A stretch of 64,000 bases of DNA from NCBI RefSeq assembly GCF_053078305.1, contig NZ_CP166879.1, one strand, 5' to 3'. Both the position numbers and the translations under genes were made by a program. Under the pieces are notes generated by a model. The model was not told where the DNA came from and did no database searches. It was given only the letters and a program-made list of their open reading frames with translations. Positions within the stretch are counted from its first letter, which is position 1; every line of letters starts with the position of its first letter. Shown piece by piece: positions 1-27,748 of this stretch.

Positions 1-1007
1 GCATCTGGCAGGTTGAACTGCCTGATGTCCCTCGCAAGCAGATACCAACTATTCTGCCCGCCTTACTGGAAGAAGAGCTGAACCAGGATATCGATGAACT
101 GCATTTCGCCCCGTTGAAAATCGACCAGCAACTGGCAACCGTGGCAGTGATTCACCAACAGCATATGCGCAACATTGCGCAGTGGTTGCAGGAAAACGGC
201 ATCACCCGCGCTACCGTCGCGCCAGACTGGATGTCTATTCCTTGTGGATTTATGGCTGGCGATGCGCAACGGGTTATCTGCCGCATCGATGAATGCCGGG
301 GATGGAGCGCCGGGCGGGCGCTGGCTCCGGTCATGTTCCGCGCCCAGCTAAATGAGCAGGATTTACCGCTTTCGCTAACCGTAGTCGGCATTGCACCGGA
401 AGAGCTATCAGTATGGGCTGGCGCAGATGCTGAACGCCTGACCGTTACGGCTCTGCCCGCCATTACCACTTATGGCGAACCGGAAGGGAACCTGCTAACA
501 GGGCCGTGGCAGCCTCGCGTCAGCTACCGAAAACAGTGGGCGCGCTGGCGAGTGATGATTCTGCCGATATTGCTGATTCTGGTTGCGCTGGCAGTGGAAC
601 GGGGCGTGACGTTATGGAGCGTCAGCGAACAGGTGGCGCAAAGCCGCGACCAGGCGGAGAAACAGTTCTTAACGTTGTTCCCGGAGCAGAAGCGGATTGT
701 GAATTTACGCTCTCAGGTGACGATGGCGCTGAAAAAATATCGCCCACAGGCCGACGATACCCGGCTGCTCGCCGAGTTGTCAGCGATAGCCAGCACCCTG
801 AAATCAGCGTCACTTTCCGACATCGAGATGCGTGGTTTCACCTTTGATCAAAAACGCCAGACGCTTCACCTCCAGTTGCGGGCAGCAAACTTTGCCAGTT
901 TCGACAAACTGCGTAGTGCACTGGCAACCGATTATGTTGTGCAACAGGACGCGTTACAGAAAGAGGGTGATGCGGTTTCCGGCGGCGTAACGTTGCGGAG
1001 GAAATAA
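1..1007 (+). CDS. gspL: Type II secretion system protein L (GspL/YghE-like), 5'-partial
   Basis: Reading frame of ORF 114..1007 stays open back to the window start; C-terminal TM segment (WRVMILPILLILVALAV); GspM-like gene starts 2 bp downstream; position next to pheV remnant matches yghE-yghD-pheV synteny. Confidence 0.65.
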   Translation, partial: IWQVELPDVPRKQIPTILPALLEEELNQDIDELHFAPLKIDQQLATVAVIHQQHMRNIAQWLQENGITRATVAPDWMSIPCGFMAGDAQRVICRIDECRGWSAGRALAPVMFRAQLNEQDLPLSLTVVGIAPEELSVWAGADAERLTVTALPAITTYGEPEGNLLTGPWQPRVSYRKQWARWRVMILPILLILVALAVERGVTLWSVSEQVAQSRDQAEKQFLTLFPEQKRIVNLRSQVTMALKKYRPQADDTRLLAELSAIASTLKSASLSDIEMRGFTFDQKRQTLHLQLRAANFASFDKLRSALATDYVVQQDALQKEGDAVSGGVTLRRK

Positions 1008-1008: not shown

Positions 1009-1545
1009 ATGTTACGCGATAAATTTATTCACTATTTTCAGCAATGGCGTGAACGCCAGTTAAGCCGTGGCGAACACTGGCTGGCACAACACCTGGCGGG
1101 GCGTTCTCCGCGTGAAAAGGGCATGTTACTGGCAGCGGTGGTGTTCCTGTTTAGCGTCGGATATTACGTCCTCATCTGGCAGCCGTTGAGCGAACGGATA
1201 GAACAACAGGAGACGATGTTGCAGCAACTGGTGGCGATGAACACCCGACTGAGGAGCGCCGCGCCGGATATTATTGCAGCGCGAAAATCCGCCACGACAG
1301 CACCTGCGCAGGTATCGCGGGTCATCAGTGACAGTGCTTCCGCGCACTCGGTGGTCATCAAGCGGATAGCCGAGCGTGGGGAGAATATTCAGGTCTGGAT
1401 AGAACCTGTGGTGTTTAATGACCTTCTGAAATGGTTAAACGCACTGGATGAAAAATATGCGCTGCGGGTAACACAAATTGATGTCAGTGCTGCTGAGAAG
1501 ACTGGGATGGTGAATGTGCAGCGGCTGGAGTTTGGACGAGGGTAA
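1009..1545 (+). CDS. gspM: Type II secretion system protein M (GspM/YghD-like)
   Basis: 178-aa ORF with single N-terminal TM helix (LLAAVVFLFSVGYYVLIW), size and position typical of GspM immediately after GspL. Confidence 0.65.
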   Translation: MLRDKFIHYFQQWRERQLSRGEHWLAQHLAGRSPREKGMLLAAVVFLFSVGYYVLIWQPLSERIEQQETMLQQLVAMNTRLRSAAPDIIAARKSATTAPAQVSRVISDSASAHSVVIKRIAERGENIQVWIEPVVFNDLLKWLNALDEKYALRVTQIDVSAAEKTGMVNVQRLEFGRG

Positions 1546-1650
1546 AGTTTCAGGAGATTAATATCAATAAAATTACTCTCGTTAACGTGGCGAGAGTAAT
1601 TCCCCCAGACTTTATAAGCTAATTTTTTTCGTGAAGGTTATTGTCAGATC

Positions 1651-1681
1651 CAAAAGCAAAAACCCGCCTTGTGGGCGGGTT
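1651..1681 (-). terminator. Rho-independent terminator (native pheV terminator)
   Basis: GC stem aacccgcc/ggcgggtt with 4-nt loop; on the minus strand it is followed by a U-rich tract (plus-strand caaaagcaaaa). Lies 12 nt 3' of the tRNA-Phe fragment. Confidence 0.5.
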
Positions 1682-1693
1682 CTTAAGAATTAG

Positions 1694-1715
1694 TGGTGCC
1701 GGACTCGGAATCGAA
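1694..1715 (-). other. 3'-terminal ~22 nt of a tRNA-Phe gene (att-site direct repeat; genomic island boundary)
   Basis: Plus strand TGGTGCCGGACTCGGAATCGAA is the reverse complement of the acceptor/T-arm 3' end of tRNA-Phe (one C short of the canonical sequence as I recall it); similarity stops abruptly after GAATCGAA, so the tRNA body is absent here. Confidence 0.6.
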
Positions 1716-2001
1716 GATTTCATTTATCATATTGATATTGATGTGATTTATTTAGTTTGATTAAAAATGTACCCTCATTTGTACCCGCAGTCCCTTTTGA
1801 TATTGAAAGGGAATCACACTCGGGATCAGGCTGAGAGCACAGAAAGAAAGTGCTTGGCTATTATATCGTTAATTCTGTCAATCAGTTCCAGCCTTTTGAA
1901 AGTGATGTGTGCAGATCCCTTCTTAAAGTATTTAATGATGAACATCTCGTCTTCATAGCGCTCTTTACCCTGAACAGACCGGATATGCTAATCCAGACGA
2001 A

Positions 2002-2667
2002 TTATGATATTTTCCCGGTTGTCGGGAATGGGGTTGCCACTGAAGAGATGCTGCATCCTTTCCTAGTCGGCAACCCGGTCAGTCTGTGGTCCGGTGATAA
2101 GATGAATCCCCACCGGCCCCATCTCACCAGATTGTTGATAATGATTTTACTTCCAAATTTACAGGGAGAGTTGGTTTTATAATTCCAACTCAGTCCCCTG
2201 AAGACGTTAATCACTCCCTGCTCAAACACCTCATCCTTATTCTGGTGCAGTTGTTCAAATGTGCTCATAATGTTCGCTTCACTGATTTCCGGAAAATTAT
2301 TGTACTCCAGTGACCGGTACCATGTATCACGGGTCTGCGCATCCATTAATGACAGCATCCCGGAGCGTTGCATCAGGTCACGCCAGATTTCACGGTCAAG
2401 GTTTCGGGTGATGGCTTTCATTGCCGTTTCAGTTTTCTCCATGAGCCAGCAGCCGCAGCGAAAATCCTGTTTCATCGCCCAGTCCCGGGCGCTTTTACCA
2501 CCAATGCTTTTTGTCAGTACTGAGATTTCAGTCAGTTGCCGGATAAGCGTTTCGGTTTGTTGCAGTGCTGCATTCCGTACCGTCACAACGTGTCGGATAC
2601 TGGTGGAGCAGATAACGTCCGTATGCCCGGTGACCACTTCCGGACGGGAGATTGTGATGTCTGACAT
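2002..2667 (-). CDS. DUF4942-like protein, island-edge gene; C-terminus possibly altered
   Basis: 221-aa ORF; family assignment from memory of the gene usually found beyond yeeW in CP4-44-like modules; last ~30 residues look unrelated (possible frameshift/truncation). Confidence 0.4.
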   Translation of the reverse strand: MSDITISRPEVVTGHTDVICSTSIRHVVTVRNAALQQTETLIRQLTEISVLTKSIGGKSARDWAMKQDFRCGCWLMEKTETAMKAITRNLDREIWRDLMQRSGMLSLMDAQTRDTWYRSLEYNNFPEISEANIMSTFEQLHQNKDEVFEQGVINVFRGLSWNYKTNSPCKFGSKIIINNLVRWGRWGFILSPDHRLTGLPTRKGCSISSVATPFPTTGKIS

Positions 2668-2751
2668 TATCGGTTTCCCTTTTGGTTTATAAACGAAAAC
2701 GCCAGCCGTATTCAGGCTGGCGTCAGGGTAATGAAGCGTGGTGAGTGATAT

Positions 2752-2949
2752 TCACCGGTTCTGGTGCAGAAGCTGCAGATGACGCAGGGTACGGACATCC
2801 TCTCTGGCCTGTTCGATACAGGGCAACAGTGCTGTCGAATCCGTTCTATCCTCATCGTTGTCAAAGATAATTCCCGATTCGCAGTCGATATTGTCCTGTA
2901 GCCACGCAATCAGAATATCCAGTGCGGTTTCCGTGGTTAATGATTTCAT
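2752..2949 (-). CDS. YeeW-like small protein
   Basis: 65-aa product from internal Met (MKSLTTETALDILIAWLQDN...); position downstream of the cbtA region as in CP4-44. Confidence 0.45.
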   Translation of the reverse strand: MKSLTTETALDILIAWLQDNIDCESGIIFDNDEDRTDSTALLPCIEQAREDVRTLRHLQLLHQNR

Positions 2950-2960
2950 GTTGTTCCTGG

Positions 2961-3449
2961 TTACCAGTCGAAAGTGGGCAGGTCCGGCAGACATTCAGCG
3001 CTGACATCCAGATGAATGAGACTGACGCCATAACGTTGGATGAGTGTGACAACCAGACGACGGAACGTTTTTGACAGCCCCAGGCGTTTAAGCCGCAGAA
3101 CCGGATATGACCACGCATCGGTACGTAACAGATATCCGCTACCTGTGAAATGAATCCATTCTGATTCACCGAAGTCACTGGTCTGGTGTGACAGCGAGTA
3201 CAACCAGGCGTTATCCTTTTCCGTGATATGTGCGGTACTGCAGCGTATGCCGGCAAGGGTTGCAAACGGTGGTAGTGTGCAGGTTGACTGTTGGTCGGAT
3301 TCCTCCACCACGCGGAGTGAATAACCGTTTTCAGCGACATTGTTAATCAGTTCAGCGAGATTAACACCATCAATGTCAACGACAATGCGCCCCATGTTCA
3401 GCGCCCGCACGTTAATGCTGTCGGCTTCCAGCGTCAGGGAAAGTTTCAT
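2961..3449 (-). CDS. Conserved hypothetical protein downstream of cbtA
   Basis: 162-aa ORF whose ATG overlaps the cbtA stop in an ATGA arrangement (3446-3449), suggesting translational coupling; preferred over the overlapping alternative-frame ORF 2861..3340. Confidence 0.5.
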   Translation of the reverse strand: MKLSLTLEADSINVRALNMGRIVVDIDGVNLAELINNVAENGYSLRVVEESDQQSTCTLPPFATLAGIRCSTAHITEKDNAWLYSLSHQTSDFGESEWIHFTGSGYLLRTDAWSYPVLRLKRLGLSKTFRRLVVTLIQRYGVSLIHLDVSAECLPDLPTFDW

Positions 3450-3823
3450 CGTTTCGCCTCCGGATGCTTACCCCGGGTAATGTTATTTACCGTTCTGTAA
3501 TTGTCGCGGGTCATCAGGCCGGTCGCCCGGCGAGCCCGGAGGATATCAATACTGTTTATTAACTGAGAGCGGGGACTAGTGCTGAACCGGGGCTGGTCGG
3601 TACGCACCAGCGCGTATTTTTCAACGAGAAAGTTCACCGCGTCACACAGTGAAATGCCTGCCTCAATATGCTGCTCAATCACACGTTCATCGGAGAACGG
3701 TGTGTCATTTAGCGTGAGGCCGTAGTGCTGGTCCAGCAGTCGGGTGAGCAGTGTCTGCCAGATGGTTACTGGAGATGGGCAGCGCGATGCCTCCCGTACG
3801 TGTGTGTCGGGTAATGTGTTCAT
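3446..3823 (-). CDS. cbtA: CbtA-family toxin (YeeV/YkfI/YpjF-like, cytoskeleton-targeting)
   Basis: 125-aa product closely matching remembered YeeV sequence (…WQTLLTRLLDQHYGLTLNDTPFSDERVIEQHIEAGISLCDAVNFLVEKYALVRTDQ…). Confidence 0.85.
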   Translation of the reverse strand: MNTLPDTHVREASRCPSPVTIWQTLLTRLLDQHYGLTLNDTPFSDERVIEQHIEAGISLCDAVNFLVEKYALVRTDQPRFSTSPRSQLINSIDILRARRATGLMTRDNYRTVNNITRGKHPEAKR

Positions 3824-3912
3824 ACTGAAGATTTTCCTGATATGCAGAGATGAAAAATGGGAAAGTGGCGTGGTGAAAACACCAGGCCGGAGCAGAAGGT
3901 TATTCTGATGAT

Positions 3913-4281
3913 TTACTTTTTCGTTTCGGGCGTCGGATAAACAGCCATATAAACGTAACCACAGGAGCCGAGGGTGTCGGCTTCGCAGGTCAGTCCTCTG
4001 GCATACAGCGTGACGGTATGCTGATGGCGGGGATTCAGTTCACCGCTGGTGAGCATGAGTTCCAGTTGTTTCATCAGCAGCGGAAAGGCCTGGTCCAGAT
4101 GGTACGCATCCGCGTCGCTGAACCGGCCTCTGATACCGGCGCGGTCGGCAAGGTAATACAACCGGTTACCCTCCTGCACCAGACGGGCGCCAAAACAGGG
4201 TGTTATAGTGCAGGGCAGCCCCCACCAGGGGCGGTTGTTATAGTCGTCGGGATAATTTGTCTCATGGTGCGTGTCTGACAC
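3913..4281 (-). CDS. cbeA: CbeA-family antitoxin (YeeU/YafW/YfjZ-like)
   Basis: 122-aa product matching remembered YeeU (…RPWWGLPCTITPCFGARLVQEGNRLYYLADRAGI…TLGSCGYVYMAVYPTPETKK); immediately upstream of toxin gene. Confidence 0.85.
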   Translation of the reverse strand: MSDTHHETNYPDDYNNRPWWGLPCTITPCFGARLVQEGNRLYYLADRAGIRGRFSDADAYHLDQAFPLLMKQLELMLTSGELNPRHQHTVTLYARGLTCEADTLGSCGYVYMAVYPTPETKK

Positions 4282-4443
4282 GATAAAGTCCTCACAGAAA
4301 ATCGGTTAAGAAGGGGTTAACGATGACAGGTCAGCCGGTGTGGAGACCGGCTTCGGTGAAGATGTATTCATTGATGAGAAGGGCCTCATCCACAGCGGCG
4401 TCTGAGGTCATCTGGTCGTACTCGTTTTCCGGGTGACGGAACA

Positions 4444-4665
4444 TTAGTTCAGAGTGACGCTCATCAGCCGGACATACGGGCCAAAACTGTCCTTACGGCG
4501 TTCAGCAAACACGGCCAGCACACCGGGAATATCCTGCACTTCACGACCGGTATACGCCTCAGCACTGCCGTGCCAGCGGTACTTACCGGTGCAGAACGGA
4601 AATAGACGGGATGCAGGATGCTGTTGGTGAATACGCATGGCTTCACCACGGGTGATAATTTTCAT
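4444..4665 (-). CDS. yeeT: YeeT-like DUF987 protein
   Basis: 73-aa product MKIITRGEAMRIHQQHP…RLMSVTLN, near-identical to remembered YeeT; conserved position upstream of cbeA. Confidence 0.8.
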   Translation of the reverse strand: MKIITRGEAMRIHQQHPASRLFPFCTGKYRWHGSAEAYTGREVQDIPGVLAVFAERRKDSFGPYVRLMSVTLN

Positions 4666-4733
4666 AATGGGATACCTCTGAAGACAGAAGATAAAAGTGA
4701 AAACAGGTGTGATGTGATTGTGGCGGTGACGGG

Positions 4734-5225
4734 TTAAAGCAGACCATGTTCGGCAAAGGAGAAAACCTGGCTGCCACCGACTATCAGATGGTCCGGCACC
4801 CGGATATCCACCAGGCCCAGTGCCTGTACCAGACGTTCGGTGATAAGGCGGTCTGCCTTACTGGGGGTGACTTCACCGGACGGGTGATTGTGCGCCAGCA
4901 CCACGGCAGCGGCATTGTGGTACAGGGCGCGTTTAATCACCTCCCGGGGATGGACTTCTGTGCGGTTGATGGTGCCTGTGAAGAGGGTTTCACCGGCAAT
5001 CAACTGATTCTGGTTGTTCAGATACAGCACCCGGAATTCTTCACGCTCCAGTCCAGCCATGTTCAGAATCAGCCATTCCCGTGCCGCTCGGGTGGAGGTG
5101 AAGGCCACGCCGGGTTCATGAAGATGGCGGTCCAGGGTTTTCAGGGCCCGCAGAATGAGACTGCGCTCGCCGGGCGTCATCTCTCCGGGCAGAAAGGAAA
5201 GCTGCTGCATTGTCCCTGCCTCCAT
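4734..5225 (-). CDS. yeeS: RadC-like JAB-domain protein (YeeS/YkfG/YfjY-like)
   Basis: JAMM/JAB motif region (…AAVVLAHNHPSGEVTPSKADRLITERL…); start may be the second Met at 5210. Confidence 0.8.
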   Translation of the reverse strand: MEAGTMQQLSFLPGEMTPGERSLILRALKTLDRHLHEPGVAFTSTRAAREWLILNMAGLEREEFRVLYLNNQNQLIAGETLFTGTINRTEVHPREVIKRALYHNAAAVVLAHNHPSGEVTPSKADRLITERLVQALGLVDIRVPDHLIVGGSQVFSFAEHGLL

Positions 5226-5699
5226 TCAGTCAATGATGCGCATAATGGCGCTGCATTCCGGATGCTGCAGGGCGTAATCCCGCAGCCGGTAATAATGGAC
5301 CGTCATGGCATAACACTCTGTACGACAGGCATGATGACTGTACGTCATCAGACAGGCAGCAATGCCGGCAGCTTCCGGACTCATTTCAGCGCGGTTACCG
5401 TTCATGGCATTGAACAGTACCCATGTTTCGTCATCATCGTCATCCGGTTCAGGGGCCATAAATGCCCCGCCGTTGTTCAGGGTGTACAGATTCCAGATGC
5501 CCCCGCAGTAGTCTTCGCACAAACGGTCCATCCAGCCGAAGACACGGGGCTCCAGGGTCACCCACTGTGGAATGAGGCTAAAATGCTGCGGCCAGAAGCT
5601 GATGCGCTGTTCATCAGGGACTATGGTGGCAACCAGTTGTTGCAGGCCAGTCTCCGGTGCACAGGCTGAAGAGGTGGTGTTCTGAGACAATGTTTTCAT
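5226..5699 (-). CDS. Antirestriction protein, ArdB/KlcA family (YfjX/YafX-like)
   Basis: ~157-aa product from internal Met (MKTLSQN…); acidic stretch PEPDDDDDETW; stop abuts radC-like start; conserved position in CP4-type modules. Confidence 0.75.
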   Translation of the reverse strand: MKTLSQNTTSSACAPETGLQQLVATIVPDEQRISFWPQHFSLIPQWVTLEPRVFGWMDRLCEDYCGGIWNLYTLNNGGAFMAPEPDDDDDETWVLFNAMNGNRAEMSPEAAGIAACLMTYSHHACRTECYAMTVHYYRLRDYALQHPECSAIMRIID

Positions 5700-5792
5700 G
5701 TGTGAAATCCTTGTAATGTGAATAAATGAGAGGAAATAAAGGCCGGGGGCTGACAACATCACGTTCATCACTGACCGTGAGACCCGGCAATA

Positions 5793-6038
5793 TCAGGGAT
5801 GAATGATATTCGGCTGAAATTCCGGACAGCCGTACGCGTAACCGTTCCGGTCACAGACGGATGGCCAGATGCCATTGCCTGTACTCAGTCTGCACAGACT
5901 GAGTTCTCCGGGACGGTAAAGCAGACGGGTACACCAGGCGCACAGGTCATCATCAGAAATGGAACGACATCCCGGCAGCGCCTCCGGGGCGTCGGGTGAT
6001 ACGGGTGCCTGAATCACGCCTTCAGGGATATGTTTCAT
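5793..6038 (-). CDS. Small DUF905-type protein (YkfF-like)
   Basis: 81-aa product from Met at 6038; its ATG overlaps the upstream stop as TGATG (6036-6040); position between DUF932 and antirestriction genes as in CP4-6/CP4-57. Confidence 0.6.
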   Translation of the reverse strand: MKHIPEGVIQAPVSPDAPEALPGCRSISDDDLCAWCTRLLYRPGELSLCRLSTGNGIWPSVCDRNGYAYGCPEFQPNIIHP

Positions 6039-6859
6039 CAGCGCATGCTCTCCAGCAGCGTTTCTGCCATCACCCACAATGCGCGGTTGAGCTTAATATC
6101 GGTGTCGATGCTGTGAATGGCACGGGTGTGGATACGTTTTCCTTTTGCACTGCGACCGGAAATCCCGCCTTTCAGCATATTCTCCTGGATGGTCTGATAA
6201 GCACTCCACAGGTCCTTACCGTAATCCTCCCGGCGTCGCGGTGTCAGAATGTCGGCGGTAGTGATGGGCTGATGTTCGTCACCATAACGGTAAGTCAGTG
6301 CCGCCTGTGCCAGCGCCTGGCGTGCCGGTGGCGGCAGGACCAGCGACTGCATGGCATCACGCTTCTCCTCTATCCGGTCAAACACGCCCACCACCTCGTA
6401 AGCCCCTTCAATGACTCTGTCCACCACATTTCCCCGGTGCGGAACACGCACTTCCCCCAGAGACTGACCACAGACGCATCCGTTCTGGCAGACGAACCTG
6501 AAGTAACCCGGCAGCATCTGGTAGCTGGAGGTACCGTCATGGGAGTTGAGCAGAATAATTTCAGGGACATGTTCTCCGTTTATCTCTCCGGCCCGCCGCA
6601 GACGCAGCATGTGTTTTGTGTATCCCCGGCGGCCCGGGTCGCGCACACGGGTCTGGCAGGCGAAGAATGGCTGAAAGCCTTCCCGCTGCAGGCTTTCCAG
6701 CACAGTGATGGTGGGGATGTACGTATAGTTCTGGCTTCGGGACGTGTGTTTCTCTTCCCCGAAAATCCCCGGCACATGGTGCATCAGCTCTTCATATGTC
6801 AGCGGACGGTCACGGCGTATCTGGTTTGCAGCATAACCAAAACGACTTGCTAATCGCAT
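6038..6859 (-). CDS. DUF932 protein (YafZ/YfjQ-like)
   Basis: 273-aa ORF, the size characteristic of YafZ/YfjQ; uninterrupted; strong coding appearance. Confidence 0.75.
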   Translation of the reverse strand: MRLASRFGYAANQIRRDRPLTYEELMHHVPGIFGEEKHTSRSQNYTYIPTITVLESLQREGFQPFFACQTRVRDPGRRGYTKHMLRLRRAGEINGEHVPEIILLNSHDGTSSYQMLPGYFRFVCQNGCVCGQSLGEVRVPHRGNVVDRVIEGAYEVVGVFDRIEEKRDAMQSLVLPPPARQALAQAALTYRYGDEHQPITTADILTPRRREDYGKDLWSAYQTIQENMLKGGISGRSAKGKRIHTRAIHSIDTDIKLNRALWVMAETLLESMR

Positions 6860-6904
6860 AATTTGCTCCTTATCGGTGGTTAAGATTTACTGGTGTAATA
6901 AATG

Positions 6905-6936
6905 AAAAAAGCCGCGTCTCCCGGAGAAGACGCGGC
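6905..6936 (-). terminator. Rho-independent terminator
   Basis: Stem gccgcgtct/agacgcggc with 8-nt loop; on the minus strand followed by UUUUUU (plus-strand aaaaaa at 6905-6910). Confidence 0.5.
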
Positions 6937-7269
6937 CTGATGGACGAAATTAATGAGGTTTATTGTCTGAGAAGCCCTCCACTGGCGAGCCACGCATTAA
7001 GCTGTTTTCCGGCATCAGCTTCAGAGTTCCGGCAGCGTCAGCGTCGCTGACCTTCCGCGTTGCGGATAACCCGACGGAAATGCATTCCCGGGTCATCCTG
7101 GATAAACACATTGCGGTAAGCGGTTATGACAGCAACCGCCTGCCCGTATGAGAAAGATCCTTCAGCCAGGACATACTCTGTGTGTAACCCGGCATATCTG
7201 GTTTCTCCTGATAAATAGCCTCTGCCATACGTTGTGGCAGAGGCTGAAGCATGAAACTGACTTCAGGGA

Positions 7270-7725
7270 TCAGTTAACATTTTTTCCGGAAACGGTAATC
7301 AGCAGTGGATGGTAGTCCTGGGGATTGAAAACCGATAACGGCAGACTGACACGATGGCCGTTACTTTCTTCAGTTGCTTTAATGATTTCGGTTGTGGCGA
7401 CATTTTCCACGCACTCCGTTTCCAGAAATGCGTCTGTGGTTCGCGTGGCATTACTGTCACCAAAAGCTTCCGTTTCCATTTTTCTGGTCACCAGCGTCTG
7501 ACCATATTTGTCTTTGAGTTGCAGAGTGATGGTGAGGGGGCCAAATCCTTCATCGTTTCCGCCATTATCCAGCCGGAACTGGTAAGCACAAATATTTCCC
7601 GGGAGCCATATTGTATCTGTATTGCGTATACTGATGTAACGTTGATCCTGTGCCCGGAGTGGGGCAGACCACGTTAACCCCAGAATGAAGGCGGTAATCA
7701 TGCAGGTTTTGAACAGGTGAATCAT
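7270..7725 (-). CDS. Secreted/periplasmic protein of unknown function
   Basis: 151-aa ORF with N-terminal signal peptide (MITAFILGLTWSAPLRAQ); no recognisable catalytic motif. Confidence 0.55.
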   Translation of the reverse strand: MIHLFKTCMITAFILGLTWSAPLRAQDQRYISIRNTDTIWLPGNICAYQFRLDNGGNDEGFGPLTITLQLKDKYGQTLVTRKMETEAFGDSNATRTTDAFLETECVENVATTEIIKATEESNGHRVSLPLSVFNPQDYHPLLITVSGKNVN

Positions 7726-7800
7726 GGTATTTACCTCTCTGAGTCATGACGATGACACTGACAAATCAGGTGATAAAGCGTAAAAGGCGCAGAATAGCCG

Positions 7801-10323
7801 TTATGCCGGTAACTCCGGGGGTAATGCTTCTTCCAGTCGGTTAACCATATTGCCGAGATGGGATGCATCATATTCCATGACGGGGCGTTGCCTGATGATA
7901 CTGACCACCAGTGGTTTGATTAACATATTGGTCGCGGCCCGTTGTTGTATACCGGCGGCGAAAATGATCTCCAGAGCATTCTGATCGATAACACGGGCCA
8001 GATTCGCGTTCAGATTTTCAATCTCATGTCCGGTCAGCAGGAAACTGCCGGCAAGCCATGTCACCTGCTCCTGAATCATTGCCAGAATTTTGACGCGATC
8101 TTCTTCAACCAGCGCTCCGGCAATTTTTCCTGATACAGCGGAGGCAATCATTCCCCCCAGAACACCGCCAACCACACGCCCTGTCAGTGCACCAAATGGT
8201 CCCAGTGGACTGAACAATATCCCGCCCGCCACTGACCCGACAGCACCACCTGCCACACCGGAAGATGCCACGGCAAGATTCCTGATGAACTGCGCACCGG
8301 AGATCCGTCCCCGCAACATTTTGATCATGTCAGGGCCGGTTGTGACAGCTACCAGTGCCAGAGATGTCACCAGCGTACCCTTCATCACTTTGTTCAGGGC
8401 ACTGATATTTCCTGCACCGGTCCCCTTCTGAAGAGCCAGTCGGACAGTCGGGCTGGCAGTCGAAAAATCAATGTGCTTCAGCATACCCTGAACAACAGTG
8501 AGCCGGTGAAGTTGCTGGGTTGTGACGTAGACAGCCAGTGTGCGGGTGAAGGTTTTTCCTGCCTGGACAGCAGCTGTCTGCAGGGCAGCATCGCGATCGC
8601 CGGTGCTGAGCCAGAAGATCGATGCCGTCAGGGCAAAACTGATCCCTCCGGCCGCCAGACTGACAACCGACCCCTCGGCAATATCATAAGTGACCGATTC
8701 GATGGTCCCGAACCGGGTGATATTACGGGCCTGAGTATAAGTCAGATGTCCCCGACGAATCAGCCGGGACGCTTCTGCGGGATCGGTTACACCGGGTACT
8801 TTACCTTCGCGGATCTTATTCCTCATGGTTTCAACAGCGCCGGCATACTGATCACGGGGGACTTCCAGTTGCATGGGGCCATTATTTCCCATGTAACGAT
8901 ACTGTCCGTTTTGTCCGTCGAATGCCGCACCGACGCTACGGGCTGCAGTTGAACAATATTTCGTCTGGATTTCTGTTCCGCTGACCAGTCTGTCTGCTCC
9001 ATTTCTGGCATTATTATCACCGAGGATCCGTGCGTTTTTCAGACGGACTCTGTCGACAATATGGTTTCCCCGTTCAGCGGCAAACCCATGTCCCTGCCCT
9101 CCGGAAGCAAACATTTTCTCATTTGTACTCCAGGTTTCCGGCAGTTTCATGAGAATCAGACCATTCGCCGTTGCATCGGAAATAAAGCTGTTGTAAGGGC
9201 GTTCATAAATTTCCTGACACAGTGTTTCTGTTTCGCGACAAAGAGAGGAGCAGTACCATTCCGGATCCGGCTTATGATTTTCCGGGGCATGATGTACTTC
9301 TGTCAGCCCGCAGGAGGCACAGATACGAAGCTCATCCACGTGATGGAATGATACAAAACGGCGACCTTCTGAAAAGGGATACCAGTCACCGCCGTCCAGG
9401 CAACGATCGAGAAAATCGTCATTCGCTTCCGGTGATAAATTCAGGCGGTTCCGGAAGAGCGTTTTCAGTTCATCAGGTGTGAATGACAGGTTCTCTTTCA
9501 ACTGTTCGTTAAACCCTGCCATGTTTCTTTCATACCAGGCATTGTTCAGTAACCAGTTTCCGTCTGCCAGTTCAAATTCCCTCAGCTCTCCCCGGGAAAT
9601 CCGTTGAGAAATGAGCGTCAGCCAGATGCGCTCCGTCAGTGAGTCAGGAAGGCTGTAATCGTTTTGCAAACTGGTCAGCCACGATTTACTGTTGAGCACC
9701 GGTTGTTCTTCCAGTGTCTGGCTGATGGCACAGGTCAGTTTTTTCAGCGCCTGGATCTGGCTGGCCGCCCATAGCAGCGTCACTAATGCAGCCAGCCAGT
9801 ACAACAACCCGCCCCACCACATCAGTGACGGTGAAATATCGTACTGTAACGCGATCAATGGTGCGCATGCAGAACACGCCATAAGGAAAAAGGCAGTATA
9901 AAAACAGCAGTAATACCCGTTAATTTCCTTGCTGATATCTTCTGGTGTGATCCCGTTCTGCTGAATGTTTTTGATCTGCAGGGGAACAGCCAGCAGACCA
10001 CCGGCGAGAGCAGTGGTCAGAATAAATTTCACAGAGTCAAAGGTGTGAGCCTCCAGCGCGATATGTTTACCATCAAGTCCCCACATGAAGCTGATGATCA
10101 TTCCGGCAATCGTCAGAAATACGCCTGCCAGCCAGCGAATATGGAACAACCGGGTTATGCGTTCGGTGATATAGCCAGCCAGTAAGGCCGGGCCGAACAG
10201 ACACAGCAATATGAGCCCTGCCAGCGCAGAAGCCGTGCTGATTAATGCTCTGAACAAAAGGCGAAGAATGGCAAATCCTGCGATCAGCAGGATCAGCGCG
10301 CCGACTATCTGTAACATAGTCAC
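7801..10323 (-). CDS. Large inner-membrane protein, YeeR-like
   Basis: 840-aa ORF immediately downstream of flu (position of yeeR in CP4-44); multiple N-terminal TM helices, Cys/His cluster (CASCGLTEVHH…CSSLC), Gly-rich hydrophobic C-terminal segment. Confidence 0.65.
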   Translation of the reverse strand: MTMLQIVGALILLIAGFAILRLLFRALISTASALAGLILLCLFGPALLAGYITERITRLFHIRWLAGVFLTIAGMIISFMWGLDGKHIALEAHTFDSVKFILTTALAGGLLAVPLQIKNIQQNGITPEDISKEINGYYCCFYTAFFLMACSACAPLIALQYDISPSLMWWGGLLYWLAALVTLLWAASQIQALKKLTCAISQTLEEQPVLNSKSWLTSLQNDYSLPDSLTERIWLTLISQRISRGELREFELADGNWLLNNAWYERNMAGFNEQLKENLSFTPDELKTLFRNRLNLSPEANDDFLDRCLDGGDWYPFSEGRRFVSFHHVDELRICASCGLTEVHHAPENHKPDPEWYCSSLCRETETLCQEIYERPYNSFISDATANGLILMKLPETWSTNEKMFASGGQGHGFAAERGNHIVDRVRLKNARILGDNNARNGADRLVSGTEIQTKYCSTAARSVGAAFDGQNGQYRYMGNNGPMQLEVPRDQYAGAVETMRNKIREGKVPGVTDPAEASRLIRRGHLTYTQARNITRFGTIESVTYDIAEGSVVSLAAGGISFALTASIFWLSTGDRDAALQTAAVQAGKTFTRTLAVYVTTQQLHRLTVVQGMLKHIDFSTASPTVRLALQKGTGAGNISALNKVMKGTLVTSLALVAVTTGPDMIKMLRGRISGAQFIRNLAVASSGVAGGAVGSVAGGILFSPLGPFGALTGRVVGGVLGGMIASAVSGKIAGALVEEDRVKILAMIQEQVTWLAGSFLLTGHEIENLNANLARVIDQNALEIIFAAGIQQRAATNMLIKPLVVSIIRQRPVMEYDASHLGNMVNRLEEALPPELPA

Positions 10324-10393
10324 TCCGTGATGAATATCATGTTATTGTTAATGCCAGCGAATGTGGCGTTGAATATCCGTTGCGCCGGTCCGG

Positions 10394-10418
10394 GTCCCGG
10401 TCATGATGACCGGGACCA
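10394..10418. repeat. Near-perfect 25-bp palindrome between flu and the YeeR-like gene
   Basis: ggtcccggtcatgatgaccgggacc reads the same on both strands except the central base. Confidence 0.8.
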
Positions 10419-10437
10419 CAGAGAGGCGATGGTTCTG

Positions 10438-13400
10438 TCAGAAGGTCACATTCAGCGTGGCCTGACCGTTATAGCCTTCAGCGCTGCTGCCGCTGACGCT
10501 GTGGACATAACCTGCCTGAACGCCCAGGGTGATGTTTTCCCGGACACGGGCTTCCAGTCCGGCCTGCAGGTCCAGTGACGTACCATTCTGTGACGGTGAG
10601 AACGTCATGTTACTGCCGGCTGCGGCTGTACCCATGCTCATGTCCCCCCGGGAGCTGAAGGTGCGGATAACAGAAGGCTGTACCCACCAGTTCACCGGCA
10701 GTTCACGCACACTGTGTTTGGCACTGCCGCGCAGGGTGTCACGGGATGAGGTGCCTTTACCAAAGTTCATATCGTTGTGGCTGCCCAGACGGAAGCCGGC
10801 ACGCACATGTTGTGCACTGCCATGCCCGAACTTCACATAACCGGCGTTGTCCTGACCGTCATCCAGGGAGAGTCCCTGCCAGGTGTACTGCAGTTGCGGC
10901 TCCAGCATCAGATTGTCAGTGATACTGAAGGGCAGACCGGTTTCCAGTGAACCCAGCCAGCCCCGGCCCCGGACGCGGAAGTCGTTATTGTCCGATGAGG
11001 CTTTCATGCTGTGGCGGGTTCCCTGGGCCACAATGTCAGCCCACAGGCCGGAGGCGTTGTGTATCAGATTCAGGTATCCGCCCAGGCTGCCGGCATCATC
11101 CCGGACCGTGCCGGCACGGGAGCCGTCATCATCCTTAACATCAACGGAAGAATGGCCTGCAGCACCATACACCCCTGTCGTCAGAGACATACCGGCAACC
11201 TCTGTTCTCATCAGGTCACCCTCCAGACGGACGAAGCCATAGCTGCCGCTGCTTTCCGGCGTGGCCCCACGGACAATACCGCCGTTGTTATCGTGACCGA
11301 GATGGCCGCCCTGAATGCTGAGACGGACGCTGTTATTTTCACCGTTTACACCGGTCTGATGGCTGCGGGAGCCTGCCAGAATCCGGTCATAGTCCATTGC
11401 CTGTGTCAGCATGGAGGCATACAGGGGGACTTCTGCACGATAAGCATTTTCACTGCGCAGATACCAGCTCTCATCACTGTCCCGGTTGAGGGAGTAGTTA
11501 AAGGCCCCGGCCTGCAGCCTGTTCCCCTGGACAAAGGCCCCTTCCTCCGTGGTGGCACCGTTAATGGCTTCCACCACCTGAATACCCTTACCGCTGGTCG
11601 CCAGCCCCGACGCACTGTTGCCGGCGTTCACCATGTTCAGGATGGTTTTTCCGGTTGCCCTGCCGCCGTCAATGACCAGTCTGTCAGCATTGTTCTGTGC
11701 CATATCCGGGCGTACACGCAGGCTGATGGTGCCATTCTGCCCGTTCAGGTTTTTCACTTTCAGGGTTGCCGGTACGAACTTCCCTGTGCGGGTGGAGGTG
11801 AAATGAATCTGTCCGGCATGGCTGAGGTCATCCACCACCGACTGCACCGTGGCGTTATCAGGGATATTCCAGGTGGCACCGGAGGCGAGAGTGACATTCG
11901 TGGGGTCAATGGCACCGTTCAGCACAGTGCTGCCGGTCAGCTTCAGGGCTGTACCGCGCTGAGCAATGACATCCGTGGTGACGGTACTGTCGTTCAGCGT
12001 CAGCGTGCCTTCATTCAGGTTGACGGCTTTCTGGGTGAGTGTGGTGTTGCTGACAGTGAGTGTGCCACTTCCTGATTTTTCCACGCTGCCGTTACCGGTG
12101 AGAGAGCCTCCCTGCAGGAGTGCATCGCCTTCACGGATGGTCAGGGTATCGTTGTTCACCGTCTTCCCGGAAAGGGTAAGTATGGCGCCGTTATTCAGCG
12201 TGGTGGTGCCCGCCAGTGTGCCGCCCCTGGCGGTGAACAGTCCGCCATTTACCGTGGTATCCGTGGCCGTATCACCGGCGTTCAGCGTGAATGAACTGCC
12301 TTTTTCCAGCATCAGGGCATCCGCCTGACCGCCTCCGATACTGAATGCCTTTCCGTCGCTCCGTGTACCACTGACAGCGGCACCGGAATCGGCCAGCAGT
12401 ACACCGCCATTTCCCATGGATACGGTGGTGGCGGTACCACCGTTGCGGACATCCAGCGTTCCGCCATCATCCACACGGGTATTAGTGGCTGTGTGTCCGC
12501 TCAGCACATCCAGACGTCCGCCATTTTCCAGTACGACATTATCAGCTTTACCCTCCACAACAGAGAATGCTCCCAGGCGGTTTGTACCGGTAACGGTTGC
12601 AGCCGTACTGGTAACCAGTGCACCGCCCGTGTTCTGGGTGACATCAGACGCTTTACCGCCGGCATTCACCTGCAGCTTTCCTTTCTGGTTGATGGTGGTA
12701 TGCGCGGCAGTTCCTCCTTCCTTAATCACCTGCCAGCCATCACGGTTTATCAGCGTCTCTGTTGCCGTGCCACCGTTGTGTACATACTGGTTACCCCCCT
12801 CCAGCCGGGTGTTATGTGCCTCTCCGTGTACCGTCTGGTCACCACCGGCGTAAATGAGGGTGTCCCGTGCCATCCCCGAAGACCAGATAACCTGCCGGCC
12901 ATTTTTGTTGATGGTGGTGGATTCAGCCGTCCCTCCGACCATCTGACCGCTGGACACATTTTCAGACTCCGGACCACCTTCTGCACCGGTGTTGACGATG
13001 GTTCCGGTTGCCAGTCCGCCATGTTTTATGGTCTGGTAACCATCCAGGTTAATAATTGTACCGGCAGCTTTCCCTCCCCCGTGTACCCACTGCTCACCTC
13101 TGTTATCCAGCGTGGTGTTCACCGCCAGTCCGTTAAGGCTCTGCCCTCCGCCATCACGAATAACCGTATCACTGGCAGTTCCTCCTGCCTGCACAATCTG
13201 ACGACCATTTGCGGTGACAGTGGTGTTTCTGCCTGTGCCACCCGCGTTTATCCATTGCCCGCCGGTGTTTTCGTCACTGTCCGGCCCCAGCTCAAGCCCG
13301 GTACTGACAGTCACGCCATCAGCTGTTCCGGATACAAACTGGTTGTCATGGTTTACCAGTGTTCCGCCATTCACTGTTTCACCCGGGTGCACAACGATGT

Positions 13401-13566
13401 CAGCAGCCAGCACCGGGAGTGACGTGACCGCGGCAAGAGACAGTGCAACCGCCACACCGCCACGTTTACCCCGTGCGCGGGCCAGTTCGGAGGCAACCAC
13501 GAAAGCGCCCGTAATGTGATTCCATACCAGCCTGTAGCAGGTATTCAGATGTCGTTTCATCAGCAT
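10438..13566 (-). CDS. flu: Antigen 43 (Ag43) self-associating autotransporter adhesin
   Basis: 1042-aa product matching remembered Ag43 along its length: extended signal peptide MKRHLNTCYRLVWNH…, passenger repeats, C-terminal beta-barrel ending …GYNGQATLNVTF. True start probably Met at 13560. Confidence 0.95.
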   Translation of the reverse strand: MLMKRHLNTCYRLVWNHITGAFVVASELARARGKRGGVAVALSLAAVTSLPVLAADIVVHPGETVNGGTLVNHDNQFVSGTADGVTVSTGLELGPDSDENTGGQWINAGGTGRNTTVTANGRQIVQAGGTASDTVIRDGGGQSLNGLAVNTTLDNRGEQWVHGGGKAAGTIINLDGYQTIKHGGLATGTIVNTGAEGGPESENVSSGQMVGGTAESTTINKNGRQVIWSSGMARDTLIYAGGDQTVHGEAHNTRLEGGNQYVHNGGTATETLINRDGWQVIKEGGTAAHTTINQKGKLQVNAGGKASDVTQNTGGALVTSTAATVTGTNRLGAFSVVEGKADNVVLENGGRLDVLSGHTATNTRVDDGGTLDVRNGGTATTVSMGNGGVLLADSGAAVSGTRSDGKAFSIGGGQADALMLEKGSSFTLNAGDTATDTTVNGGLFTARGGTLAGTTTLNNGAILTLSGKTVNNDTLTIREGDALLQGGSLTGNGSVEKSGSGTLTVSNTTLTQKAVNLNEGTLTLNDSTVTTDVIAQRGTALKLTGSTVLNGAIDPTNVTLASGATWNIPDNATVQSVVDDLSHAGQIHFTSTRTGKFVPATLKVKNLNGQNGTISLRVRPDMAQNNADRLVIDGGRATGKTILNMVNAGNSASGLATSGKGIQVVEAINGATTEEGAFVQGNRLQAGAFNYSLNRDSDESWYLRSENAYRAEVPLYASMLTQAMDYDRILAGSRSHQTGVNGENNSVRLSIQGGHLGHDNNGGIVRGATPESSGSYGFVRLEGDLMRTEVAGMSLTTGVYGAAGHSSVDVKDDDGSRAGTVRDDAGSLGGYLNLIHNASGLWADIVAQGTRHSMKASSDNNDFRVRGRGWLGSLETGLPFSITDNLMLEPQLQYTWQGLSLDDGQDNAGYVKFGHGSAQHVRAGFRLGSHNDMNFGKGTSSRDTLRGSAKHSVRELPVNWWVQPSVIRTFSSRGDMSMGTAAAGSNMTFSPSQNGTSLDLQAGLEARVRENITLGVQAGYVHSVSGSSAEGYNGQATLNVTF

Positions 13567-13751
13567 TTCCTTAATCAGAGTGAGAGTGAATAAAAAAGCC
13601 GGTATCCACAGATGTGGATACCGGCAGGTAAAGGGTTACAGTGCCAGAGGTCCGGCTGACGGAAGTTTCTGACGTGTGGCTCTGTTGTTCCCTGAATGTC
13701 TTTCTGTACGTATCTGTGCATGTTACTGACAAAGGTTATTATTAGCTTATC

Positions 13752-13787
13752 GATCGATATAAACGATCGATAAAATAGGTATCGATC
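13752..13787 (-). promoter_or_regulatory. agn43 phase-variation switch: three GATC Dam sites in the OxyR operator region
   Basis: GATC at 13752, 13765 and 13784 within tatcGATCgatataaacGATCgataaaataggtatcGATCg, ~190-220 bp upstream of the flu start codon. Confidence 0.8.
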
Positions 13788-13892
13788 GTTTTATTCTATT
13801 GTTTGGCTATTGCACGGACAAGAGAGACAGTAACGAAAACAGCGCTTTTGTGAGCAGACTCAGAGTCAGGGAGGGCATCAGTCACGACAGGT

Positions 13893-14765
13893 TCAGAAGA
13901 AAATCCAGTTCCATACCGCACGGGCAACAGAGACCACCGTGTTACGAACAGCGCGCAGGGCCGTACGGACAACAGAGGCAACACAGACGCTCTCCGCTGT
14001 GTCAAATATCCGGTCCACCGCACCGGTAAACTGTTCACGGGCCTGAGACCGGACAGATTCCGTGCGCAGCTCGTCCTGCAGTCGGGTCATCAGGGGACTG
14101 GCGGCATGGTCGGGAAGCGCTGTCATGAGCGCACTGACCAGCGTATCCAGTTCCCAGCCGGTGCGGGCCGATACGGCCACAACCGGATGTACGGGCCGGA
14201 ACAGACGGAATACCGCCTCCGTTTTTTCGCGAATATTCTGTGCCTGTGCAGGAGAAGGCTGAATACCGGCCATATCCCATTCATGGCAGGGCTCCGTTTT
14301 GTCGGCCTGCGTCACCACAAACAGCACCTGCTGATGTCCCCGGTGCAGGATGTGTCGCCAGAAATACTCATCCACAGACAGGGCCCGGTCATCGGCTTTA
14401 ATCAGCCACAGCACCAGGTCAAGTTCAGGCAGAATGTCACGGTACAGGGCCTCATACTCTGCATCCCTGTCCCGGCTCTCGCCCACCCCGGGCAGGTCAG
14501 TGATAACCATGCTGTGACCGTGGCCACTCAGACGGAAGCGCCGTACTTCCCGGGTGCCGGCGTGAACATCACTGACCGGGGTGACCTCCCCCTGAAACAG
14601 TGCATTACAGAGTGAGGATTTACCGGCCCCGCTTTTACCCATAATGCCAATCACGGGTTCGTGACGGGTGAGTTTGCGCAGATGTTCCAGGATGTGACGG
14701 GAAAGTGAGTAAGGCAGGGAGGAGAGCGGTTTTTCAATTGCCTCAATGGCATCAGACGGATTCAT
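13893..14765 (-). CDS. yeeP: YeeP/YkfA/YfjP-family GTPase
   Basis: P-loop GIMGKSGAGKSSL plus G-motifs (DLPGVG, TQADK); ~290 aa from Met at 14765 (ORF extends to 14804); upstream of flu as in CP4-44. Confidence 0.8.
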   Translation of the reverse strand: MNPSDAIEAIEKPLSSLPYSLSRHILEHLRKLTRHEPVIGIMGKSGAGKSSLCNALFQGEVTPVSDVHAGTREVRRFRLSGHGHSMVITDLPGVGESRDRDAEYEALYRDILPELDLVLWLIKADDRALSVDEYFWRHILHRGHQQVLFVVTQADKTEPCHEWDMAGIQPSPAQAQNIREKTEAVFRLFRPVHPVVAVSARTGWELDTLVSALMTALPDHAASPLMTRLQDELRTESVRSQAREQFTGAVDRIFDTAESVCVASVVRTALRAVRNTVVSVARAVWNWIFF

Positions 14766-15208
14766 ACATGTATTCCCGGTGAAAAAAGACAAAACCCCGC
14801 GCACCGGAAAGGTGGCGGGGGATCCACGGAGATAATATCTGTCTGAAATTGTTTTGAATCGATGGGATTGTTGCGTATTAACATGAAGGAGATCAGGACT
14901 TATCCGTTACTGGGTGATCTCCTTCCATGAAAATACGCAGTTATTGTTAAACAGCAGGCTGATTTCTCCGTAAAGGGGAAAATATTTATCGGCTGCATGA
15001 TTATCAGGTGTGTCTGTGTTTACTGCTGTGAGTATTTTTCAGTGTATTGTGGGGGAGATGTCAGTGGGAGATATTAAATTTACGTTTATAATTATCTTAC
15101 TTCTTCTGTGTGTTTTTTATAAGAGTGCACACGTAATGATATCTGTTGATACCATGTGGTTAAGTGTTTCCCTTCCGGGTCATGCGTACTTGCAAAATGG
15201 CATCTGAA

Positions 15209-15238
15209 TCGATCACGGTTTGGCCAAACCGTGATCGA
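15209..15238. repeat. Perfect 30-bp palindrome in ORF-free AT-rich region
   Basis: tcgatcacggtttgg|ccaaaccgtgatcga: 15-bp arms, no spacer, contains two GATC sites. Confidence 0.9.
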
Positions 15239-16106
15239 ATAGAGAGGAATACGCACGTAATGATTAAATGCTTTTGTTACACCATTCTTCCGGCATGAAT
15301 ATTTATCCAGTTCCCTTTTTTATTTGTGTAGTGATACTGTCGGAATAGCGTTCAGTAATGTGAAGCGTCCTGTTAAAAATCTTTAATAAATGTGTCACCC
15401 TGGTCAGGAAATATCTGCTGAGATATTATTAGTTGGTGGTGTTTTTACTGAGTAATAGCTGGCTTTTAATTCCTGAACTGAAATACTGTCGCTCGTCAGG
15501 GTTTAATTAAAACTGGATGATGATGTGAAAATGAAGGCTGGTTTTTGTGTTTGTCGAGGAAGTGTTGTTTTTATCCATTCTCATCATTGGCTGGCTGCGA
15601 TTATACAGAAGTATTTGAAGAAAAAATGGTGCATTTTATCTGTGCCGGCAGGGAGGGGGATTTTCCTGATATGTCAGTATTAAATGGTTTTTGTTATTTA
15701 TAAAAATGTCATCCTGTCCATAGAATATTGTACTGAGTACTCAGCATTCAGCGCAGGAACTGTCATCTTCTTTATTTTATTCTTCTTCAGGAGGGCAGTT
15801 TTCTGAAAGCGTTACTCCGGGGAAACTGTTTATGTTTATTCCCGGCAGGAAACCCGTACCTGCAATACCCTGGATGATGCTTTTTGCTGGTACGTTGTTG
15901 TGTGAAAATTAATCAACATGTGTGCTCCGGAGAGCGCCCGTAGACGCACAGATTCATTCTGACATTCTTTAGCGACAAAATATCGATTGGTTATTATTTA
16001 ACCTGAAAATCGACAGAAATTTTTATCCTGTATTGATTCTGATGCTATTTTTGCTATTAGTAGCAATAGTTGCGGTACTTTATGTTCTGTGTGTTGTAAG
16101 GTCATT

Positions 16107-17597
16107 ATGCCATACTTTCAGTATCCTGATGAGTTTCCCCTGAGCTCGCTGCCTCCACTCATTCGTGATGCCGTTATTGAAGCTCAGCAAATCACGCAGG
16201 CTCCCCTGGGGCTTGTGGCAGCATCTGCCCTGGGCGCTGTTTCACTTGTCTGCCAGAATCTGATTGATGTCTGCAGACTGAATACACTGCGGGGGCCGGT
16301 TTCTCTTTTCTTACTGACGCTTGCTGAGTCCGGAGAACGAAAAACCGCAGTGGACAAATTATTAATGGAGCCCCTGTACCAGCAGGAGATGCTGTTATAT
16401 TCCAGACACAAAAATGAACTGACGACATGGAAAAATAAGGAAGAGCTTTTAAAGGCGCAGAAAAAAGCATTGTTGTCAAAACTGAATAAAGAACTCCGCA
16501 AAGGCGCGGATGAGTCAGAAACGCTCAGACAACTGGAAGCGCTTCAGAAAAACAGAGGGGAAAAACCTGTAAGATATAAATTCATTTTTAATGATGCCAC
16601 GACAGCAGCAATTAAAGATCAGCTTTGTGGTCAGTGGCGTTCAGTGGGTATCATGTCTGATGAAGCCGGTATAATATTTGATGGGTATACCCTGTCTGAG
16701 CTGCCTTTTATTAACAAAATGTGGGATGGCTCCGTATTGTCGGTGGACAGAAAGAATGAACCCGAACAGATGATTGAAAATGCCAGAATGACATTATCTC
16801 TCATGGTACAACCCGGTCTTTTTGACCGATATATGGAGCGAAAAGGTTCTGTTGCCAGGGACAGTGGTTTTCTTGCCCGTTGTCTAATCAGTAAACCTGC
16901 CACCACGCAGGGGAAACGCTTTATTAACGGAGCAGTGACCCCGGGAGAATCATTAACGGCATTTCATGAACGATTAATGGAACTGGCCAGAGGCAGTATT
17001 GAAAAATCCAGTAAGGATGAACGTTATTGTCTGCATTTTTCTCCAGAAGCGCAAAAAATATTTATTGATCACTATAATGTTCTGGAGCAGGATTTGTCTC
17101 CTTCCGGACCCTTAAGCCAGTTTCGGGGGCATGTTTCAAAAAAAACAGAAAACATTGCGAGAATTGCTGCGTTATTGCAGTATTTCAGTCAGGGTGAAGG
17201 GAAAATCTCTGCCGATATCATGACGTCTGCTGTCGTAATAAGTTCGTGGTACACAGATGAATATAAAAAATTATTTGCGTTACCTGATGAATCTGAACTG
17301 CAGCTGCAGGACGCCCGGGAGCTGCTCGACTGGCTCATTGAGGAGTGCCGCGGAGAATGCCCGCCCCGTGTCAGGAAAAATTATATTCTCCAGTGTGGCC
17401 CGGGCCGGTTCAGGAACAGGAAAAAGCTGAACGTCCTGCTGAACATTCTTGCATCTCAACTCAGGCTCTCTGTCGTGCAGGAAGGAAAAACCACCTATGT
17501 CCTGCTTTCCGAAATAAACAATATCACGCTGCCTGAACTGAATGCGTGCTACAGCCAGAAACTGATAAGATGGCATGAGCAATCCTTTGGCTTATAA
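16107..17597 (+). CDS. DUF3987 protein (YfjI-like; related to P4 alpha primase C-terminal region)
   Basis: ~496-aa ORF with AAGGT RBS before ATG 16107; family assignment from memory of island-borne YfjI-like proteins. Confidence 0.55.
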   Translation: MPYFQYPDEFPLSSLPPLIRDAVIEAQQITQAPLGLVAASALGAVSLVCQNLIDVCRLNTLRGPVSLFLLTLAESGERKTAVDKLLMEPLYQQEMLLYSRHKNELTTWKNKEELLKAQKKALLSKLNKELRKGADESETLRQLEALQKNRGEKPVRYKFIFNDATTAAIKDQLCGQWRSVGIMSDEAGIIFDGYTLSELPFINKMWDGSVLSVDRKNEPEQMIENARMTLSLMVQPGLFDRYMERKGSVARDSGFLARCLISKPATTQGKRFINGAVTPGESLTAFHERLMELARGSIEKSSKDERYCLHFSPEAQKIFIDHYNVLEQDLSPSGPLSQFRGHVSKKTENIARIAALLQYFSQGEGKISADIMTSAVVISSWYTDEYKKLFALPDESELQLQDARELLDWLIEECRGECPPRVRKNYILQCGPGRFRNRKKLNVLLNILASQLRLSVVQEGKTTYVLLSEINNITLPELNACYSQKLIRWHEQSFGL

Positions 17598-17718
17598 TGT
17601 TCCCTGTTGCTGAGACGGATTATTCAGTGGTGGTATCGCAGTATGCCCGTCACCCCCCGCTTCTGCATGAGGGTGACGGAGGAAAAGTAAGTGTGCGGAG
17701 GCCCGGGAGCGTTATGAA

Positions 17719-27721: not shown

Positions 27722-27748
27722 TCATCCTGCACAGTTAAAGGTAGCACT

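Follow-up and report, generated by a model that had tools for sequence, protein, structure and literature searches.

The satellite phage P4 integrates at leuX, and P4-type island integrases are tyrosine integrases with an N-terminal arm-binding domain that target the 3' ends of tRNA genes. Among the described systems that resemble the locus considered here are the GI-pheV islands, for which the attR sequence TTCGATTCCGAGTCCGG-CACCA has been tabulated in 16 reference strains, including 536, APEC O1, H10407, 55989, 042, and REL606, and termed a 23-bp imperfect repeat (PLoS Genet 2024, PMC11537424). The gene intP4 is the only one common to all GI-pheV islands, and flu and yee modules adjoin attR; the attR variants differ from pheV on the island-proximal side only and share the terminal GGCACCA, with the CATCA of EC958 representing a later change (PMC11537424). 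The LAA pathogenicity island of LEE-negative STEC is inserted at pheV between yqgA and yghD, has 23-bp imperfect direct repeats of the pheV 3' end, and is an IS-bounded mosaic of four modules; hes, the gene that defines it, lies near pheV, some 3.3 kb away from the integrase (PMC5539235). Another pheV island, that of E. coli AL862 (PAI II AL862 in PMC7545054), carries a deoK deoxyribose operon.

We analyzed a 64-kb stretch of DNA, referred to here as the window, and asked what the short noncoding segment at positions 1651 to 1715 represents. On the plus strand, this segment reads caaaagcaaaaacccgccttgtgggcgggttcttaagaattagTGGTGCCGGACTCGGAATCGAA. We conclude, with a probability of about 0.93, that it marks where a GI-pheV genomic island meets the chromosome at its distal end (attR). 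The minus strand from 1715 to 1694 contains the 22-mer TTCGATTCCGAGTCCGGCACCA, which occurs once in the window. When aligned with K-12 pheV, the 22-mer corresponds to nucleotides 54 to 76 of the tRNA with one G of a GGG run missing, and it comprises the 7-nt T-loop, the 3' strand of the T-stem, the 3' strand of the acceptor stem, and ACCA. An ungapped 23-mer of the pheV 3' end had no match in the window, even with up to 3 mismatches allowed. A chance resemblance of these 22 nt to tRNA-Phe is refuted, as the 22-mer was expected zero times by chance (100 shuffles) and is syntenic with K-12 pheV. The original prediction of a 22-nt copy of the tRNA-Phe 3' end, made from the letters of the window, is thus borne out by alignment, by uniqueness, and by the shuffles. 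The check that it proposed for an intact tRNA-Phe next to the fragment found none there, and ARAGORN and Rfam detected no tRNA genes in the whole 64-kb window.

The identity of the locus comes from comparison with the empty site of K-12 MG1655, in which the gene order is yqgA, pheV (76 nt), and yghD. The K-12 site aligns with the window through yghD, the intergenic sequence, the terminator, and the tRNA 3' end with scattered substitutions only. This homology ends after ...GGAATCGAA, at the first base of the T-loop, and divergence is complete beyond that point. The alignment indicates that the terminator is pheV's own and that the fragment lies exactly where the pheV 3' end belongs. The synteny of both elements with K-12 further indicates that the locus is pheV rather than pheU; of the two tRNA-Phe genes originally proposed as the possible site of the scar, pheV therefore stands and pheU does not. 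The repeat derives from the final 23 bp of pheV and is situated at that gene's locus, on the side of the K-12 backbone where yghD lies. The fragment had also been placed between core genes of the GspL/GspM type and accessory DNA, and this placement holds: the DNA beyond yghD is absent from K-12, where pheV is directly beside yghD, and few genomes cover most of the window.

The minus-strand terminator next to the fragment, which had been described as canonical, was confirmed as well. A terminator consensus scan identified a 12-pair hairpin at 1685 to 1657 followed by UUUUUGCUUUUG, and this hairpin is the only terminator-like site between 1400 and 2100. It starts 8 bases downstream of the 22-mer on the minus strand, and a 71-nt sequence containing the terminator folds with an energy of -23.3 kcal/mol (z = -3.0). 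With its GC-rich hairpin and U-tract, the element has the sequence features of a Rho-independent terminator 3' of pheV, and the identical sequence is found directly after intact pheV in K-12. A different canonical terminator directly follows intact pheV on the island side in strain STEC17-190 (positions 6153 to 6176 of the extracted locus), which indicates that the island brings a replacement terminator and that the native one is left stranded beside the scar. The coordinates of these and other features are collected in the table.

Table. Features at and beyond the pheV junction in the 64-kb window
Feature	Position	Strand	Basis
gspL/yghE 3' part (type II secretion L protein), chromosomal backbone	1..1007	+	ORF; CUVET19-1937 and STEC17-190 have gspL annotated at the corresponding position; K-12 yghE
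yghD (GspM family), 178-aa ORF, last backbone gene before the island	1009..1545	+	yghD annotated in all relatives; K-12 neighbor of pheV
Native pheV intrinsic terminator (predicted), hairpin 1685-1657 plus U-tract, now apart from the tRNA gene	1646..1685	-	Scan, fold, K-12 identity
attR core, 22-nt copy of pheV nt 54-76 minus one G	1694..1715	-	Alignment; same string as published GI-pheV attR
GGCACCA, candidate strand-exchange segment	1694..1700	-	Sole stretch identical in tabulated attR variants (except EC958, CATCA) and in gapped and ungapped copies
Noncoding island terminus (putative att arm)	1716..1825		About 85-100% conserved beside the scar in 329 genomes, at pheV and pheU
Island body, at least 62.3 kb in the window, continuing past its end	1716..64000		44.4 kb colinear with the ~104-kb STEC17-190 island
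DUF4942 pseudogene, first island gene	1826..2667	-	Pfam DUF4942 on a 221-aa ORF; relatives annotated as frameshifted with an internal stop
yee-type module: DUF957, DUF5983, CbtA toxin, CbeA/YeeU antitoxin, DUF987, RadC-like JAB, antirestriction, DUF932	2752..6859	-	93-96% colinear with annotated STEC17-190 genes
flu module: 840-aa protein, Ag43 autotransporter (10438-13566), IS102 RNA element, GTPase (13893-14804)	7801..14804	-	ORFs, STEC17-190 colinearity, Rfam

The other end of such an island can be seen in STEC17-190 (NZ_CP075649.1), which has yghD and the same gapped 22-mer scar. Some 104 kb away from that scar lies an intact pheV containing the full 23-mer, accompanied by yqgA and by a tyrosine integrase of 421 aa. 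The integrase (WP_001218780.1) has the P4-type set of domains (PF13356 Arm-DNA-bind_3, PF22022 Phage_int_M, and PF00589 Phage_integrase), and its match to NCBIfam PRK09692 falls below the family cutoff. The window is colinear with the STEC17-190 pheV island over 44.4 of its 64 kb, in the same gene order and up to its last base, which maps 17.3 kb short of the STEC17-190 pheV. A tblastn search with the STEC17-190 integrase revealed no P4-type integrase in the 64-kb window (best E = 2.5). Two further parts of the original prediction are supported by this comparison, namely, that the fragment is the partial direct repeat at the distal end of the island, since the same scar pairs with intact pheV and an integrase in STEC17-190, and that the tRNA gene and integrase lie outside the window, where in STEC17-190 they are found ~104 kb from the scar. 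With each checkable element holding and the STEC17-190 pattern matching, we consider the earlier interpretation supported; the integrase and attL of this particular island are inferred from relatives.

These observations fit a model in which a P4-type tyrosine integrase would recombine the island attP with pheV, a chromosomal tRNA-Phe gene, at its 3' end. After integration of this kind, the side facing yqgA, outside the window, would hold intact pheV together with the integrase and the island, while the side facing yghD would retain a 22-nt imperfect direct repeat of the tRNA 3' end to which the original pheV terminator is still attached. In place of that terminator, the tRNA would receive one from the integrase-proximal arm of the island. 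Viewed from within the window, where neither an integrase nor a second repeat is visible and IS elements are frequent in the island, the fragment might instead be a decayed tRNA gene in which pheV was cut by a deletion or an IS event and not by site-specific integration. However, hundreds of genomes share exactly this break point, which also recurs at pheU, the adjoining 110 nt are a conserved island terminus and not an IS end, and a full matching repeat and an integrase are present at the other island end in relatives. We therefore regard decay of this kind as highly improbable. The sequence from 1716 to the end of the window is island DNA.

In comparison with the described systems, the window shows no difference in kind from the GI-pheV islands of the 23-bp imperfect attR type: the attR string is identical, the position in the K-12 backbone is the same, and flu and yee modules lie beside attR (PMC11537424). 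The intP4-type integrase beside pheV at the other end is likewise seen in the colinear STEC17-190 island. The cargo of the window is a mosaic that, as a whole, is present in none of 5426 complete E. coli genomes. With LAA, the island shares the pheV site, the imperfect repeats, the yqgA and yghD flanks, and the IS-bounded modular structure (PMC5539235); the part corresponding to the hes-bearing, integrase-proximal end of LAA would fall outside the window, and the window cargo resembles that of the STEC17-190 island instead. The AL862 pheV island has in common with the window the deoK deoxyribose operon (window positions 25713 to 30090), whereas the rest of its cargo differs. In the window, this operon encodes a DeoR regulator, a ribokinase-type kinase, a permease, and an epimerase and is 99.3% identical to that in STEC17-190. 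The similarity to P4 at leuX consists of the targeting of a tRNA gene at its 3' end, the distal junction with its short direct repeat of that end, and, in a relative, the tyrosine integrase with an N-terminal arm domain; the tRNA is a different one, and the window showed no genes for phage structure or replication. Because this exact attR has already been tabulated for 16 strains (PMC11537424), the scar is correctly identified but already known, and the result amounts to routine island delineation. It does fix one boundary of a large virulence and fitness island, with the 62 kb to its right being mobile DNA, and it tells annotators to look past the window end for the integrase and the tRNA gene.

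We next surveyed 5426 complete E. coli genomes. The site was empty, with the terminator contiguous with a complete pheV, in 1858 of them, while the 76-nt sequence of terminator plus scar was present at ≥99% in at least 859. The junction from yghD to the first island gene was covered to at least 80% in 682 genomes. Coverage at the same level extended over positions 1 to 25000 of the window in only 29 genomes and over positions 40000 to 64000 in none. For positions 1400 to 2400, which include yghD, the scar, and the start of the island, the best full-length match among these genomes was 98.8% identical. The only 100% match to window positions 1694 to 1830 was in FEX669 (positions 3900 to 4022 of the extracted locus), where the kps capsule region, and not yghD, is on the chromosomal side of the scar.

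The terminus of the island immediately adjoins the scar and contains two direct repeats, TGTACCCTCA at 1768 to 1777 and TGTACCCGCA at 1780 to 1789, that are twelve bases apart. These repeats are candidate arm-type sites for the integrase, and in unrelated genera, comparable CCC-ended repeat pairs are similarly distant from the core. The fit of such pairs to arm-type sites suggests that the 110-nt terminus is an att arm. At the opposite arm, we observed that the region downstream of K-12 pheU (terminator and yjdQ; positions 700 to 751 of the extracted locus) is homologous to the integrase-proximal arm of the island, suggesting that what K-12 retains at pheU is the decayed remainder of an island from this family. 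A search for an attR copy at K-12 pheU found none; the yjdQ remnant and the arm on the integrase side are all that is present there.

The missing G distinguishes the scar from the 3' end of pheV, and we examined its distribution. At pheU, beside cadC, the same gapped 22-mer is joined to the same island terminus in MEI005, F1022, STEC1589, and SB0258h1 (positions 2990 to 3011 of the extracted locus in one and approximately 1501 to 1522 in three). The flank at these pheU scars is the integrase arm of an older island with a yjdQ-like integrase remnant, as in K-12, which implies that the tRNA end once adjoining it must have been functional and ungapped. With record span used as a proxy for gap state, which indels elsewhere can mislead, 60 of 60 sampled rows of the 329 terminus-bearing genomes extend through the gapped form. 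In a separate count by the same proxy, about 5 of 60 sampled genomes were scored as ungapped. Two of these five ungapped-scored rows, strain 488 and YJ4, were aligned, and both are indeed ungapped, so that 23-mer scars occur at pheU (strain 488) as well as at pheV (YJ4). The island terminus and neighboring proteins of strain 488 match those of CUVET19-1937, whose scar is gapped and located at pheV.

Outside Escherichia, a scan of one genome per species, using a pattern that detects the gapped 22-mer and the ungapped 23-mer and leaves other mutant forms uncounted, identified orphan gapped 22-mers in Budvicia aquatica, Limnobaculum allomyrinae, four Xenorhabdus species, and one Marinobacter strain. 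Orphan ungapped 23-mers were found by the same scan in Yersinia ruckeri (two loci), Y. pekkanenii, and Serratia sp. DD3. A tRNA gene was absent from the non-Escherichia loci scanned, and the flanking sequences vary from genus to genus. The orphan fragments belong to several island-side sequence families, each with a CCC-ended direct repeat pair approximately 55 to 90 nt from the core. The gap, found at both pheV and pheU as well as in other genera, is thus recurrent.

We somewhat favor the interpretation that the missing G is carried by the attP core of the island and that strand exchange takes place within the last 7 nt, GGCACCA. Under this arrangement, positions 1701 to 1715 would be island derived rather than displaced native tRNA DNA. 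It is favored by the four genomes in which the gapped 22-mer and the same terminus are found at pheU beside a different flank, and by the tabulated attR variants, which differ from pheV island-proximally only and share GGCACCA (PMC11537424). We had taken the gap at pheU as proof that the gap is island borne; the ungapped 23-mers at both loci weaken that argument, and an island-borne gap is now the favored reading only. Against it stand these same ungapped scars, one of which, in strain 488, has the terminus of the gapped CUVET19-1937, and the exact match between the start of the identity block and that of the 7-nt T-loop. Williams is said to have described, in 2002, an identity block starting at the T-loop as a signature of T-loop crossover.

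Crossover in the T-loop would place the same boundary at the same position but reverse the origin of the repeat. The 22-mer would then be the displaced original 3' end of pheV, the functional end at attL would be island derived, and one G would have been lost later from the now-unselected copy, such that the island, if lost through the action of its integrase, would leave behind a crippled pheV of 75 nt. A pheV of this length does occur: seven island-free yqgA-pheV-yghD genomes, representing at least two flank haplotypes, have the same one-G gap within an otherwise full-length pheV of 75 nt. In two examples, EC2 and TW10590 (both at positions 2559 to 2633 of the extracted loci), ARAGORN calls the gene in a shifted register only. 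These seven genes look like footprints of island loss and carry exactly the gap that T-loop excision would leave, but they account for only 7 of the 1858 empty sites. All families observed have an identity block that opens with the first base of the T-loop, and the gap state is independent of the island-terminus allele, both of which are consistent with T-loop crossover. So is a gapped pheV fragment of ~47 nt in ET846, which runs from the anticodon stem to the 3' end and lies beside the native terminator under an unrelated island (positions ~5510 to 5560 of the extracted locus). On the other hand, loss of the same single G must then have arisen and become the majority state in independent events at the two loci, pheV and pheU, with a further recurrence in other genera. 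Published attR variants also differ from pheV within the T-loop, which is awkward if the T-loop is the overlap region (PMC11537424). Weighing these points, we regard T-loop crossover as a serious but less probable account, to which we would give about one chance in three. As a separate observation, the pheV island of ET846 is 24.6 kb long and encodes a type I restriction-modification system and two recombinases, and its native terminator is cut by IS1.

With an attP-borne gap and exchange in GGCACCA as the preferred reading, the loss of this particular G may still be other than random, although we consider this rather doubtful. The gap could be an attP variant that fixes the position of exchange and is tolerated or favored, or, under T-loop crossover, it could make the island a holder of a "tRNA hostage." If the latter were true, loss of the island would leave a crippled tRNA-Phe gene, islands with a gapped attR would persist longer and be overrepresented, and the seven footprint genomes would be rare survivors of island loss. 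The observations on the gap are modestly interesting and bear on where strand exchange occurs; its recurrence makes two points testable, namely, the position at which the integrase cuts and whether imperfect repeats stabilize islands.

Several features of the cargo were noted in addition. The only Rfam match in the window is a full-length IS102 RNA (RF00124; 252.9 bits) on the minus strand at 13585 to 13789, directly upstream of the Ag43 gene. Positions 38976 to 50970 encode a type I secretion set (TolC, ABC ATPase, and HlyD) followed by a 1,614-aa Ig-like repeat protein, after which there is a YadA-like trimeric autotransporter. At the position of the 1,614-aa protein, STEC17-190 encodes a giant GA-like protein of 4,813 aa, and positions 44330 to 51177 of the window had no megablast match in STEC17-190. 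Copies of the IS66 family are present at 30336 to 35805 and at 51178 to 53710, and one IS66-bearing segment that is absent from STEC17-190 contains a truncated second PAPS-reductase/DUF3440 ORF (33414 to 34214) and a 212-aa ORF. Three adjacent genes at 57848 to 61918 may form a defense cluster. The first is PAPS-reductase-like with a weak match to BrxP; a divergent gene, without a PADLOC match, is IbrB-like according to the STEC17-190 annotation; and a 595-aa NERD-UvrD protein matches the PADLOC candidate defense family C3a187 over its full length (E = 4e-135).
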